Assembly (NCBI GenBank): GCA_039621445.1
Contig: CP154954.1
Coordinates: forward strand, 48,153,847 to 48,217,846
Direction of reading: 5' to 3'
Source of the DNA: Euglena gracilis
Taxonomy: Eukaryota
Length of the DNA: 64,000 nucleotides
The notes below the pieces were generated by a model that saw only the letters and a list, made by a program, of their open reading frames with translations, was not told where the DNA came from and did no database searches. The position numbers were made by a program, and so were the translations under genes. This document shows positions 13,208 through 33,200 of the stretch, one piece after another. Position 1 is the stretch's first letter, and the number at the start of each line of letters is the position of its first letter.

Positions 13208-16200
13208 TCACTTGGCCACGTACACCCGCAGCTCCTCCAGGTCAGCCCTGGCCACAGAGGCAGGTGCCGGTGGGCAAATGGGCGATCTGGGTGACTGTAT
13301 TGTTTGCAAAGTTCCATCCGGCCAAGCCACATTGCTCAGCGGCCTTCAAGGCGGAAGAAAACTCCAAAACAGGCCGGCAAATGAAAATACCCCGTTGGCT
13401 TGTTTTCCGTGGGCTTTTCTACTTCTTCTTTTGCTAGGTTTCGTCGTGGGATGTCAAACCAAACTCTGGTCTTGCAGGGCTCAGCCTTGTTGGCTTCCAT
13501 TTGGGGTTTGCCACCAGACGAGAGGCTGAATTATTTGCCTTCAAGCTGTGGCGTCACACAGCAAGGCTGACGGACGCACAAAGGTGGTAGAAAAAACACA
13601 TGCACACCCCCTACAACAAATAGGCAACCCAGACCCCCCCCCCCACGAAAGTTTGTTCTGTTCCCCGCTTGGCCACCCCGACCAACTCCACAGCTCCATC
13701 CGTCCGACGACGGACGACCCCGGCGGCCGGCCCCTGCCCGGTGGTGGGGCCGAAGAGGGACGGCAGCCCGTCGGCGCGGGCCTCGTAGTACGTGCCGAGG
13801 GCGGAGGACGCGCGGTGGCTGCGGTCGAGGGCGAAGTCCCCGTCGTCGTCCAGGAGACCCATTTCGCGGGCCCGCAGCTTGGACCGGCCCCACGCCCCAG
13901 CGCGGGCCGCCGGGGGGCAGCAACCTCCCGGCACACCCCCGGCGACCTCTGCGGAACGGGGGGGGGGGTGGGGGAGAGGCGACGGGGCGACGTGGACACC
14001 GTTCCAGACACCGTTCCACACACAGTTCGGGACACTGTTCAGGACATGGTTCGAGACACGGTTCAGGACACCGTTCCGCAAAGTGCCGGGAGGTTGCTCC
14101 CCCCCCCCCCCCGGGGAGGCCCAGAGGAATGGGACTGTTGGTTGCCCTTCTTCTGGTTGGCGGCGGCTGACTTGGAAGGTGCGGTGAGCCACACCTGGAC
14201 AAAGCAACCTCCAACGTGTCTAAGCTTGAGCAGCACATCAAATCTGATGACAGCTTCTCAATATGGGAAGAGCTGAAGCTCAACCAAATGAATATTTCAG
14301 GGCGGGTGATCGTCTGCCATCAATGGAAACGACAACCCATCCCCAACCAAATTTGGTTCTAAATCCTTTGGAAATTGGGTTCCACTTGAGAAATGGATGG
14401 TCCCTTTGTGTTTCTCAACCTTGAAACTGTTTGGAGTCCTCGAGATCTGCCAGCGACAATGCTGAGGCGTGGCTGTGTGTACACCTGCTTGACGAGGGGG
14501 ATCCGCAGCCCATCCGCCCCAAAAGCCGGGCACAGGGGGCGTTGGACTCCCCCCACCACGCACCTCCCCAGCGGTCAAGAGAGGGGGAGGTCTGATGGAC
14601 GAAATGAAGTTTCTCTGCCACACCCACCTGAACATCTTTTCGGCCTGAAAAAAAATAATAATAATAAAATATAATAATTTTCACGAGGCTGGATTATCTT
14701 CACCGAGAGAAATATGTCGTTGCACATCACCGATCGCCGTCCCCTGGGGGGGCCCTGCCCGCCGAGGTCGTACACGGAGGGCAGGCCCGGGATGCGGGCC
14801 AACACCTCCACGCTGTCGTCGAGGGCGCAGGTGGGGCTGTGGAAGAGGAACGCGTTGCGCGTCTCCAGCAGGTCGCCCGTCGACGCCCACCCGATGCCGT
14901 TGTATGCCCCGAACGGCCCCGGCGGCTGTCCCCCTCTGGTGGTTGGGTGGTGCCCCCCGCTCTCCTGGACCTCCCCCCCGCCCAAGGGGGGTATTGGGGC
15001 CATACAATTTTTTACCGACCCCCGGGGGGAGGGAGGGGGGGTCACTCCACTTTTGAAAAACCAGTCATTCACTTTTCTTTGGGAAGCCAGTCAGTCACTA
15101 CCCCCCCTGGGGGGGTCGGCCACTCAGCAAAACCAGCTACTTTCCAGTCACTTTAGGCTATTTTAGGCCAAAAAAAATTTTCCTGGCGCCTTCGGCGCCG
15201 GGGTCACTCAAGCCACTTTTGCCCACCCCTGGCCGACCCCCCCCCCCCCCAGGGGGGGAGGGGGTCCGGGCCGGACCTGGTTTTGGTCCGGGCCCAAAAC
15301 CAGTCAGTCACTCTGAAAAAACCAGTCAGTCACCCCCCCCCCCAGGGGGTGGGACAGTGCTTAAAAAATTGTCTGATTGGGGCTAAGGCCGCCGCACAGC
15401 ACTCCGGTGGTGGTCTTCCCCACAAGGATAGCGGGGCCACGGTTGTCGACCAACCGGTGGCATCAGAGCCCCCCGCCGCCGTCAGGTGCCGGTGGGGGTT
15501 AGGAATGGCCGCATCCCATGCCACCTGACCTTGTGGGAGGCTGGGGCCACAGTAATGAAAGCCACACAGATGAGAGGGCTGGCAAACTGCGGGGAGGTCT
15601 GGGCGGAAGGCGGCGGCGGACCAGCCATCACGGGTCGCGTCGTACGCGAGGGCGAGGGGCAGGGACTCGAGCCGCGTGCCGGGCATCACCAGACTTTCAT
15701 TTAGTGTGCCGCGGCGAAGTTTGCCGCCGCACAAAAATCTTTTCCATGGCGCACGCGGCGCAGAAAAAAATTTCCAGAGGCGCATTAAATGCAAGTCTGG
15801 GCAGCACCGTGCGCCGCAGCGCCGCTGTCTCCGCGTCGTCCTCCGGCACTGCCACCGCCACCCCGCCCTCCGGCTCCTCCTCGTACTGTGGCGGCTTGAA
15901 GAGGTCGAAGAGGCTCGCCCGCAGCGGCGCGACGCGGGAGCGGTGGGAACTCAGGGCCTGGGCAGCAGAGTCACCCCCCTGCCCATCTCCTCGCCGATTC
16001 TGAAGCTGCAGGAGGTGGAGGTGCAATCCAATAGGCGCGCGGCTATGCTGACTGTCTGGGGGCAGGGGGCTAAATGGCGGAAAAGCAACCTCGTTGGACG
16101 GTGCAAGCACCCAAACAAAAAACTGTTGCGCGCTCTGCCGGTGCCGTTGCGTGCGAACGTCTTCACGACTTCCCCAGCAGCTCACGGTAATGCGCGCGGT

Positions 16201-30200: not shown

Positions 30201-33200
30201 GGGAGATGGAACGAAATGCCCGTGTACAGGAATCGAACATCCAATGGCAACACAGCACACCGAGCCGCACACTGGCATCACTGAGGCTTGGCGCTGAGGA
30301 CAAGACAAAAGTTCGCCGTGGCAACAACACTGGATGCAATTAAACGGCTGAGTGTTGCAAAAACCAACACACCTGAATTGATTCTCAATGTGATGGCTGA
30401 TTGGCTGATTTATTTGTGAAATCGATTTCTCTGACAGTGCATTTGATGAAGTCTTTGTGTGTGCATTTAATGAACCTTTGCGATGCCGAACTTGCAAAAA
30501 TGCCATATACTCAACGAAACATGGCATGAAAAGCATACACATGAAACCACAACACACACACAACACAACACACACACACACACACACACACACACACACA
30601 CACACACACACACACACACACACACACACACACACACACACACACACACACACACACACACACACACACACACAGCATGCACGTAAGCGCAGACATGCGC
30701 ATGTGTGCACACACCCATGCCGTAATAGCAGCACCCCACGTTGACAAGAGCACTAATATCTGGGGAGCGTAGCCAGAGCCGCAACATCGTGACGCTCAGG
30801 TTCCCACAAGCATGCAAGCCGGCCAGGCAGAGCCTGGGGCCGCCCTGGACAGAGGGCAAGGAAAACAGCCCATGGACACTGCAAACCAACTCTGTCACCC
30901 CCCCCCCCTTTGCACCAAGCTTTCCCCCAATGACAAGCTCTTGGAATGTCATTGGGGAACCCTTTGACTCTTTGGTCGATTACTGTCTCTCACCGTTTCT
31001 TTTTCCTGCCTAGCAAACCAATTTTCTTCATTGGGGCTTCATTTATTGGGTGTCGCCCTGGGTGTGGGGGGCTGGTCGGCTTGGCTCCCCCGTCTCCTGT
31101 CTGGGGGGTGGTTGTGGGCTTTGGCTGTCATTCCCCCTGAGGGGGTGGTCGCTCCCGAGTTCCCCTGGGGGGGGGGGCATTTCCTGGCTCCCTTGGGGGG
31201 ATGTCGCTGCCTGGGCTCCCATGTGGTGGGGTGCCTGGCTGGTGCGTGAGTGGGCATCGTGCTTGAGCCACCCAACGACAGAGCGAGATGGGCCGATCTG
31301 TGGCGCGGCACCGACCAGCCCCCCCCCCCCCCCCGGCCCGGGGGGAGGGGGTCCGGCCCACACCTCTGTGGCGGGCCCCTCCTCCGCCTCCCAGGCGGGC
31401 CCCACCACCCGCAGCAGCTGCTCCGTGGAGAAGTCCTCGCTGAGCCGGCACGGGACGTGGACCACCCGCTGCCGCCACGCCGCTGTGCCGGACGGCCGTG
31501 CGGGGGGGCTTGGCGGGTGGGGTGGGGTGGTCGGGGGGGGGGGGGGGAGGGACTCATCCGGGCGGGGCTGGGCTGGGGGGTGCTTCGGGTGGCCATGCCA
31601 GCCTGACAAAGGCAGTTCAGCCCTTCAACCGTGAGAATGGCGGTGCTTTTCGTTCTATTTCGGTGTCACCCCACTGCCCCACTCCCGAAAGATTTCCCCC
31701 CAAAGTTTTGGACCATTCGCCCACAATCCTCCGATGGCCCACGGAAGGGAAGGGTTGACCTTCGCCGGGTGTGATGCCCAGAGGCTCAATAGCGAAAGCG
31801 AGCTCCACCCGGCGGAAGTTTCGAGGAGCCTGATGGTATCAGGTCCGCTGATTTAATAACACCAAATATCATGGGCCCAAAATTTCGCTATGAAAACGAC
31901 CAATACGGAAACTGCTTACGAGGAGAAGCGGGAGGTGTATCCCAGACAAAAGCAACACCCCACATAGCGATACGCTGGGGTGCCATACCTGGGTCGCCCT
32001 GGCCTTCTGGTTGGGGCCCTTCGTTGGTCGGAGAGGGGAAGGCTTCCCCGTCCTCCTTTGCTGCAGCCTCGGATTCTGTGGATCACAAGAGGGCGGGTCC
32101 ATCCGGAATACGGCACACCATAGCAAACGTGGGGTAGCTGGAAATAGAAATGGCCACCCCCTTCCCCCTTCCTGGCAGGAGCTGCGCGGCAAGCTGGGCA
32201 TGGCAAGGGGGGGGGTGACGAGAGTGACAAAATTGGGCAGCACCAAAGGAGGGGGAGGGACAACTTCCCACCCATTTCCAGAAGTGGTCCAGAAATTATT
32301 GAGGGTACCCGAGGACCCCTCCCTCCCCTAGGGGTCACTTCTTTGGCTTTGCGCCAGAGGAGGGACAGGATTCCCACCCCAAAAAATGGGGTGGGAATCA
32401 CCCCATTTTTGATGATGGGGTGATTCCCCATCATCAAAGGATGGGGAATCCCTTGATGATTCCCTATCCTTTGGCGATGCGTTTTCGGCTAATTTCGAGG
32501 ACAAAAATTTCAACTAGGAGGAGGTTCATGAGGCTCCGTGTGCGTTTTGAAGAGCCGAAGCGCCGGGGACAAAACGCACCCAGAGGGGGATTTTTTCCTG
32601 AGCGCTCCGAGTCGGTTTTGGTTCCTGGGCGGCACACTCCTCCCCAGGCAGCCAGGGGACCCAGCCCCCCATCACAGCTGCGCACCCCGTTGCCGCTTCA
32701 GCTTCTTGCGGGCCTGGTGGGCGTCGGCCCGGGCGATGCTCACCGTCCGCTCCTCCGCCGCCCGGTTGTTCCCCTCGTTGCCCTCCGCCAGGATTCTCTT
32801 GAAGACCCCCGGGGAGGGGCCTGCTCACCCAGCCCAGGGCGGGACCCCCCACTGGGGGGGGGGGGGGCAGGGATCCCCCGAAAAAAATCGGGCCCTCTGA
32901 GGCCGTTTCCGCCGAAACCCATACCCAGGCCTCTGGCCCGGACCCACCCACCCACCCCCTGGGGCGGGTCTTCTGACTTAAAAAGAAGCCTGCCCTCCAC
33001 CGCCACCACCGGCAGGCCGTAAACGAAGTGCAGCGTCGTGGACAGGTACCCCTGGGGTTGAACCGGAGGCCGTTGGGGGGTCAGGGCCCCCCCACCAATG
33101 CAATGTGTGGCCCTTGTGAGGGCCACTCCGGTAAACCACCAGGCAGTCAGGGTCAGGCATCTTTGGGGAGTTGTCGGGGTCCGGTATTCCGGATCTTTCA

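Follow-up and report, generated by a model that had tools for sequence, protein, structure and literature searches.

The origin of the nonconventional introns of euglenids has been an open question since the 1990s, and the locus described here raises it in a concrete form: can introns of this kind be transposon insertions that splicing removes without a scar? We analysed a stretch of 64,000 nucleotides (nt) of Euglena gracilis (assembly GCA_039621445.1, contig CP154954.1, positions 48,153,847 to 48,217,846 of the forward strand), hereafter called the window and numbered from its first base. We read it as nuclear DNA; its GC fraction is about 0.57, and GT-AG borders are absent from most of its introns. 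An original prediction, made from the letters of this DNA, held that the other introns have the geometry of short transposons with 8-base-pair (bp) target site duplications (TSDs). Our analysis leads to the view that the nonconventional introns probably arise when elements with an 8-bp TSD insert in exons, splicing then removing the element together with one TSD copy.

Part of this picture is already in print. An origin from transposable elements of the miniature inverted-repeat type (MITEs) was proposed in 2013/14 from inverted repeats, and direct repeats at the junctions were noted, in a paper of which one passage states that no transposable elements were then known in euglenids (PMC3935182). 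A recently gained gapC intron of E. agilis was described in 2016 with 8-nt direct repeats at its junctions (PMC4770533), and a passage of a 2024 review labels the CAG/CTG ends as terminal inverted repeats (TIRs) and the junction repeats as TSD-like (PMC11282704). The splicing code 5'-N3CDG-/-CH'GN5-6|R was defined by experiment (Nomura et al. 2025, PMC12501133). According to the passages of that paper on the code, the 5' spacer is strict; when the 3' spacer loses 1 nt, about 20% splicing persists, and a gain of 1 nt there is tolerated, while synthetic 50-bp introns with 15 complementary terminal bases are spliced; 84% of introns are said to be "slidable" and their origin is called unclear. Both the pairing of positions +4..+6 with -8..-6 and the earlier suggestion of a transposon origin, to which the original prediction referred, had been published before, as had the N3/N5 code. 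A search of the literature on Euglena with hAT, 8-bp TSD, MITE and introner, supplements lying outside it, provisionally gave no work that equates the sum of the two spacers with the TSD length, and none that describes CAG-ended MITE families with 8-bp TSDs in Euglena or links them to hAT.

The events that we propose are as follows. The window holds several families of short non-autonomous DNA transposons with CAG...CTG termini (CAA...TTG in one family) and 8-bp TSDs. Insertion of such an element in an exon would give a pre-mRNA of the form TSD-CAG...CTG-TSD, whose inverted termini could pair, and the nonconventional machinery, following its published rule, would cut at a distance of 3 nt from this stem on its 5' side and of 5 nt on its 3' side. 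As 3 + 5 = 8, excision would take away the element and exactly one copy of the TSD, and the mRNA would regain the sequence that preceded the insertion. Two introns, at 15685-15802 and 32784-32995, may be young examples in which a long TIR and a 7/8 TSD are still present. In older nonconventional introns the TSDs would have decayed, leaving just the features required for splicing (N3-CDG/CH'G-N5, then a purine).

The two introns with long inverted repeats and the flanks of nonconventional introns

The features of these two introns are given below. The N3/N5 register means spacers of 3 nt before and 5 nt after the stem.

15685-15802, minus strand: nonconventional intron of 118 nt in a TLDc-like gene; RNA joint 15680->15799, N3/N5 register
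15690-15799, unstranded: TIR element of 110 bp with CAGAC... termini, about 17/20 complementary; equal to the intron core
15682-15689, unstranded: left copy of the duplication, GGCATCAC
15800-15807, unstranded: right copy of the duplication, GGCAGCAC, a 7/8 match to GGCATCAC
32784-32995, minus strand: nonconventional intron of 212 nt in a Methyltransf_32 gene; protein P0001 spans the junction, N3/N5 register
32789-32992, unstranded: TIR element of 204 bp with CAGG.TTCT.TT.AAG termini, about 14/18 complementary
32781-32788 and 32993-33000, unstranded: flanks CCCTCCGC and CCCTCCAC of the 204-bp element, a 7/8 match

Reads were mapped over positions 6560-22540, using two contig runs guessed to be RNA (X1 and X2), one raw RNA run (X21) and one DNA-like run (X20); the region from 22.5 to 33 kb rests on transcript-derived proteins, P0001 and P0003 having been mapped onto the window for the remaining introns. 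The 118-nt joint (15680->15799, slide 5) was present in X1 and X2 contigs and at 20 raw RNA-seq read starts of X21, and in 0 contigs of X20. Across the junction of the second intron P0001 reads ..GLPVVAVEG|NEGNNRAAEE.., which fixes the intron length at 212 nt, i.e. the 204-bp element plus 8 nt, and none of the nine placements compatible with the protein is GT-AG. Within the slide, the borders GCC.CAG...CTG.GTGAT (118 nt) and GGG.CAG...CTG.GCGGA (212 nt) satisfy N3-CDG/CH'G-N5, and the G variant of the 15682/15800 duplication is kept in the mRNA, consistent with an N3/N5 cut. As predicted, both introns are spliced, and each consists of a complete TIR element and 8 nt, with flanks that agree at 7/8 positions. 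At 110 and 204 bp, the two elements have the small size and the lack of coding capacity of MITEs. With a match rate of 0.27, flanks that agree at 7/8 positions or more are expected at about 6e-4 of sites, and two such matches among 14 introns are far beyond chance. The resemblance that had been seen between the TIR at 32789 and the CAGGG..CTTAAG family of MITEs (family B below) stood for one end (score 15, p about 0.005), the other end reaching p about 0.06 against a best-of-22 null; internally, similarity of the 204-bp element to the families is limited to a C-run/G-run module.

The trace of a duplication is not confined to these two cases. For the 14 introns in the N3/N5 register, base x was compared with base x+L, where L is the intron length, by position relative to the stem. 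Identity was 61/112 (54.5%) in the 8 nt beside the stem versus 119/462 (25.8%) outside (Fisher p 1.5e-8), and 47/96 (49%) versus 104/396 when the two named introns were left out (p 3.8e-5). The matches per position, out of 14, were 4 at -9, then 8, 5, 9, 6, 9, 8, 8 and 8 from -8 to -1, followed by 6 at 0 and 3 at +1. When upstream and downstream flanks were paired by permutation, the observed identity had p 6e-5 for the 14 introns and p 0.0038 without the two named ones, so a shared junction consensus does not explain the signal. The comparison of 8-nt flanks with shuffled controls, which had been put forward for the whole genome along with the original prediction, gives for these 14 introns an excess of identity limited to the 8 positions beside the stem. 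At the 13 GT-AG introns identity rises at -2, -1 and 0 only, where the AG|G consensus lies. An N3/N6 intron of 258 nt has a 9-nt repeat (7/9), which is its own spacer sum.

Could the repeats instead be functional, the machinery preferring alike junctions, so that the 8-nt identity would tell of selection and not of origin? Some junction consensus does exist. In 14/14 N3/N5 introns the exon that follows opens with a purine (G in both named introns), and identity across introns, 2.7/8 for the first 11 introns, slightly exceeds the value of about 2.1/8 that corresponds to a background rate of about 0.26 per position. Within introns, however, identity reaches 4.36/8 versus about 2.7/8 across them, with the permutation p given above. 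Moreover, the published code needs a length and not a sequence of the spacer, and designed introns are spliced (PMC12501133), the passages concerned leaving aside whether the spacers of these introns repeat. We regard selection for alike junctions as a very improbable source of the repeats.

Inverted-repeat elements of the window and their superfamily

In the window we scanned every CA..TG pair with a spacing of 30-2500 bp whose termini are complementary at 10/12 positions or more, which gave 6231 pairs. Their 8-nt flanks were identical at 8/8 positions in 7 pairs and at 7/8 in 12; displacing one flank by 1, 2, 9 or 15 nt, in seven controls, left 0-2 pairs at 8/8 and 0-6 at 7/8. Since a 1-nt shift abolishes the signal, the duplication is 8 bp long. 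Perfect TSDs are found at 10237, 15001, 29528, 37332, 46350, 50324 and 62072. Among them are all five that had been listed earlier for CA(G)..(C)TG MITEs (15001, 29528, 37332, 46350 and 50324), each at the correct coordinate. Six 7/8 TSDs are credible (15690, 32789, 44550, 46546, 51402 and 57845); six other 7/8 rows (37089, 41500 twice, 41681 twice and 43619) were discounted as microsatellite or GCCGCGG arrays. Apart from the two introns described above, the elements are:

15001-15375, unstranded: element E, a MITE with perfect TSD ATTGGGGC, nested in a 483-nt nonconventional intron
29528-29645, unstranded: family A MITE, CAGGCT..., perfect TSD ATGCCAGC, within a GT-AG intron of the methyltransferase gene
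37332-37625, unstranded: family A MITE, perfect TSD ATGCAAAC
50324-50632, unstranded: family A MITE, perfect TSD AGAGGGAC
51402-51519, unstranded: family A copy, 7/8 TSD
46350-47043, unstranded: family B MITE CAGGGGTTTTCTTAAG, perfect TSD GCAGGCAC
44550-45040, unstranded: second copy of family B, 7/8 TSD
46546-46662, unstranded: family C element of 117 bp, 7/8 TSD, nested in the family B element 46350-47043
57845-58578, unstranded: family C element CAGGGTTCGA, 7/8 TSD
10237-12022, unstranded: family D element with CAAGCACCT termini, perfect TSD, no long open reading frame (ORF)
62072-63524, unstranded: second copy of family D, perfect TSD, no long ORF

CA is the start of all 13 elements. At the fifth terminal position only families B and C have G, and A, D, E and both named introns have C. 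The termini are CAGGCT..TTTTA in family A (29528, 37332, 50324 and 51402, with a decayed copy at about 17576-17877), CAGGG..TTTCTTAAG in family B (44550 and 46350), CAGGGTTCGA in family C (46546 and 57845) and CAAGCACCT in family D (10237 and 62072). The C-run/G-run module is common to families A and B and to element E. Family C being nested in a family B element with a perfect TSD, the insertions took place in succession. ORFs across the "empty sites" of the other MITEs looked non-coding. The family D elements (1.4-1.8 kb) contain internal 10-bp tandem repeats (CCATTTTAGG); their CAA/TTG ends are outside the published CDG code, yet the stem of a 321-nt intron also ends in CAA...TTG.

These elements bear on two other accounts of the repeats. 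In one of them, double-strand-break repair or microhomology-mediated intron gain left the junction repeats as scars, which would then not be TSDs, and the stems are simply a need of splicing. The 8-nt repeat of the gapC intron was read as break repair in a passage of Milanowski et al. 2016 (PMC4770533), and the 118-nt case has no family relative in the window. On the other side, an 8-bp repeat abutting CA..TG termini also occurs at multi-copy elements outside exons (seven perfect cases, four families), repeat identity stops sharply at 8 nt, and break repair predicts neither a fixed length nor a fixed terminal trinucleotide. This account thus appears unlikely to us. The other account reverses the direction, the MITEs being copies of nonconventional introns that spread after excision, for instance as circular RNA or by reverse splicing. 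MITE and intron termini are indeed alike, and excised nonconventional introns exist as full-length circles according to a passage of PMC11282704. Each MITE copy, however, duplicates its own 8-bp flank, which is the signature of staggered cutting of the target DNA, whereas reinserted introns would carry the spacers of their parent or no duplication; also, the nesting of family C in family B lies in DNA without sign of coding. We give little credence to spread from introns to MITEs, and return to an origin of the introns from inserted elements.

Which superfamily these elements belong to is a separate matter. hAT transposons have 8-bp TSDs and CA(G) termini, with the terminal consensus pyrimidine-A-purine-N-G, and they prefer targets whose TSD has T as its second and A as its seventh base. 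Positions 1-3 of this consensus fit 13/13 elements and position 5 fits families B and C only. T at position 2 or A at position 7 was counted 13 times out of 26 versus 5.7 expected (binomial p 0.0015), in a small sample with an arbitrary choice of strand. In favour of the hAT assignment made in the original prediction are the 8-bp TSD, the CA(G) termini and the apparent T2/A7 bias, and against it are a fifth base that is mostly C and the lack of a transposase in the window. We call the elements hAT-like, and whether they are truly hAT stands at about even.

E. gracilis also has two Merlin families, both with 8-bp TSDs, as described in a passage of PMC8101967. The elements could accordingly be real 8-bp-TSD transposons other than hAT, as non-autonomous partners of Merlin, P-like or other 8-bp-TSD superfamilies, and the 9-nt repeat of the 258-nt intron would fit the 8-9 bp of Merlin. 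Against this, all Merlin TIRs in the same passage start with GG, while all 13 elements here start with CA, for which Merlin itself was set aside; furthermore, the apparent T2/A7 bias would match the preference of hAT. A superfamily other than hAT is possible, and we hold it for rather doubtful.

Some observations were made on the elements themselves. The MITE at 15001-15375 was considered as an intron in its own right and rejected: the RNA joint takes out 483 nt (14913-15395), with the MITE nested inside. In the DNA-like run the summed contig depth of the bin 15088-15620, mostly element E, is several thousand times that of its single-copy neighbours, a figure that is not a copy number. A 241-nt "joint" at 15054-15296, inside the same MITE, is found in the RNA contigs as well as in the DNA-like run (14 contigs); it is a DNA-level variant, a shorter form of this repeat family, and not splicing. 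At 17823-17840 and 20331-20352 many raw RNA reads end in long C runs, at G/C homopolymers of MITE-like sequence.

Genes and intron inventory

Three minus-strand genes were defined by RNA joints and two transcript-derived proteins. Twelve RNA joints lie within 6560-22540 and are absent from the DNA-like run; most occur in all three RNA sets and two lack X2. They belong to the TLDc-like gene and to the 3' end of the GST gene, and the joints listed for this range are all linear, none being a back-splice. Exons are about 100% identical to the EukProt proteins EG_transcript_12828 (P0001) and EG_transcript_20863. Pfam matches on 20 long ORFs were GST_C and a weak SUR7 only; in DNA this rich in GC, long ORFs are uninformative. 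The genes and their introns, beyond those given above, are:

12448-18332, minus strand: TLDc-like gene region, from RNA joints
12451-13141, 13250-13739, 13886-14474 and 14915-15397 (483 nt), minus strand: first four N3/N5 introns of the TLDc-like gene
15459-15604, 15685-15802, 15953-16345 and 17189-17918, minus strand: the other four N3/N5 introns of the TLDc-like gene
14528-14748 (221 nt), minus strand: exception in the TLDc-like gene, spacer sum 7
19487-25514, minus strand: GST gene (P0003), from protein mapping, with three GT-AG introns
19657-20118, 20294-20798, 21853-22961 and 24970-25355, minus strand: N3/N5 introns of the GST gene
21532-21768 (no fit), about 23021-23341 (sum 7) and 24661-24918 (N3/N6), minus strand: exceptions in the GST gene
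27899-36937, minus strand: Methyltransf_32 gene (P0001, EG_transcript_12828), 15 exons and 14 introns, ten of them GT-AG
33711-34040 (unique position, N3/N5), 32784-32995 and about 29764-29830 (67 nt, sum 7), minus strand: nonconventional introns of the methyltransferase gene

The three genes together contain 13 introns of the GT-AG type and 19 resolved nonconventional ones; the two introns at 16538-17128, the one at 17982-18331 and the methyltransferase 227/234 junction stand outside this count. The register is N3/N5 in 14 of the 19 and the spacer sum is 7 in three (221, 67 and 321 nt), while the 258-nt intron has a sum of 9 and the 237-nt intron fits no register. Three introns do not slide, those of 393 and 462 nt (from RNA) and of 330 nt (from protein), and each of them has its best helix on the N3/N5 diagonal. 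No N3/N5 intron was similar to another of the 14 (blastn within the window). The original prediction had counted 13 introns with 3/5 offsets between 15682 and 33000, without its list being available; we resolved 12 nonconventional introns in this interval, three more lying outside that number. Eight of them fit N3/N5 (118, 393, 730, the latter weakly, 462, 505, 1109, 386 and 212 nt), and four do not (67 and 321 nt with sum 7, 258 nt with sum 9 and 237 nt with no fit).

The 258-nt N3/N6 intron at 24661-24918, with its 9-nt direct repeat (7/9), contains a long TG microsatellite; the repeat suggests an occasional 9-bp duplication or a change of 1 nt at the element end. Adjacent genes contrast sharply, the TLDc-like gene having at least 11 introns and no GT-AG among them while the methyltransferase gene has 10/14 GT-AG. 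At 16538-17128 RNA contigs carry a 31-nt microexon that is not in the window at up to 3 mismatches; inspection by eye places a diverged match around 16656-16686, and several small indels occur in the DNA-like run at this joint. This mismatch and the indels indicate that the allele of the window differs from the expressed or sequenced allele. Far from these genes, at 3128-3187, lie ten tandem copies of GGTTAG, a telomere-like hexamer repeat.

Weight of the proposed origin and comparison with known systems

That the spacer sum 3 + 5 equals the TSD length is well supported within this window. The claim of the original prediction that 3 + 5 = 8 is the TSD and makes removal scarless draws support from the two whole-TIR introns, the 8-nt step, the 3/3 helices of non-sliding introns and the 9-nt repeat at the N3/N6 intron; from these we infer that transposition is the source of the introns.

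Several observations weigh against this origin. A spacer sum of 8 is lacking in five of the 19 resolved nonconventional introns, of which the three with sum 7 show no repeat and one fits no register. For slidable introns the mRNA cannot show the exact cut, so that N3/N5 is compatible and not proven: 15685-15802 is one of six placements compatible with the slide of its joint, and the N3/N5 cut of the 212-nt intron is one of nine that agree with the protein. The 110-bp element has no relative in the 64 kb (blastn; termini p 0.14), and its family membership is consequently not shown; nor was an empty-site allele found at 15680/15799 in the one DNA-like run. The perfect-TSD MITEs whose context can be determined (15001 and 29528) sit in larger introns and not in exons. 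No transposase is encoded in the 64-kb window, the 1.4-1.8-kb family D elements being without a long ORF. The repeat test has a sample of 14 introns from three neighbouring genes, and in it position -13 from the first stem base shows x = x+L in 10/14 introns, neighbouring positions giving 1-4/14. The two bases compared at this position lie in the exon, 10 nt upstream of the 5' cut, and in the intron, at -10 from the 3' end, and their identity may be chance.

The direction of the adaptation deserves a separate word. The machinery may have been tuned to the transposon and not the reverse. An account in which only those elements survive in exons that fit a pre-existing machinery has the same fit, and is indistinguishable here from a machinery tuned to transposon ends. 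In a joint reading, the 3 + 5 rule would be a molecular fossil of the 8-bp TSD, and most nonconventional introns (these being about 72% of E. agilis introns) would come from exonic insertions of one CAG-ended hAT-like lineage, spliced instantly and without a scar in either orientation, the whole forming a co-evolved and still-active intron generator. We put this joint reading forward tentatively, as slightly less probable than its negation.

The equality of spacer sum and TSD length makes the loose MITE hypothesis quantitative. It would explain why most such introns are "slidable", the presence of 8-nt repeats at a newly gained intron and the values of 3 and 5 for the tested spacers. If it is true, an 8-nt step in flank identity should be seen genome-wide, intron cores should cluster with 8-bp-TSD families, and empty sites should equal the spliced sequence.

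How does this compare with known systems? With hAT MITEs, the elements share the 8-bp TSD, short CA(G) TIRs, an apparent T2/A7 bias and nested insertions, and they differ in the fifth base, which is C in families A, D, E and both introns against G in the hAT consensus. Introners of Micromonas and dinoflagellates (Huff et al. 2016, via PMC11170887; PMC11282704) are, in the passages on them, likewise non-autonomous DNA transposons that become introns, with a TSD in the junction and the exon restored. In these passages they are spliceosomal, with one splice site in the element and one from a 3-nt TSD, whereas here the TSD is 8 bp, the cut is measured from an RNA stem and the borders are non-spliceosomal; and introners come as many near-identical introns per family, unlike the introns within this window. 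Published euglenid nonconventional introns (Nomura 2025; Milanowski 2014/2016) agree with ours in being non-GT-AG, in the stem from +4 to -6 and in the purine as first exon base, as does the published code in its CAG/CTG, CGG/CCG and CGG/CTG variants and in 3' spacer variation (sums 7 and 9 here). Splicing is no different, and the novelty lies in the 8-nt step and in two introns that can still be recognised as complete TIR elements flanked by 7/8 TSDs. The MITE-origin hypothesis, in the passages of PMC3935182 and PMC11282704 devoted to it, already has the termini as TIRs, TSD-like repeats, insertion in an exon and removal at the RNA level; these passages name no family, TSD length or superfamily, and the window adds families, a TSD of 8 and its equality with the spacer sum. 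The result is a refinement of this existing hypothesis and not a new kind of system.

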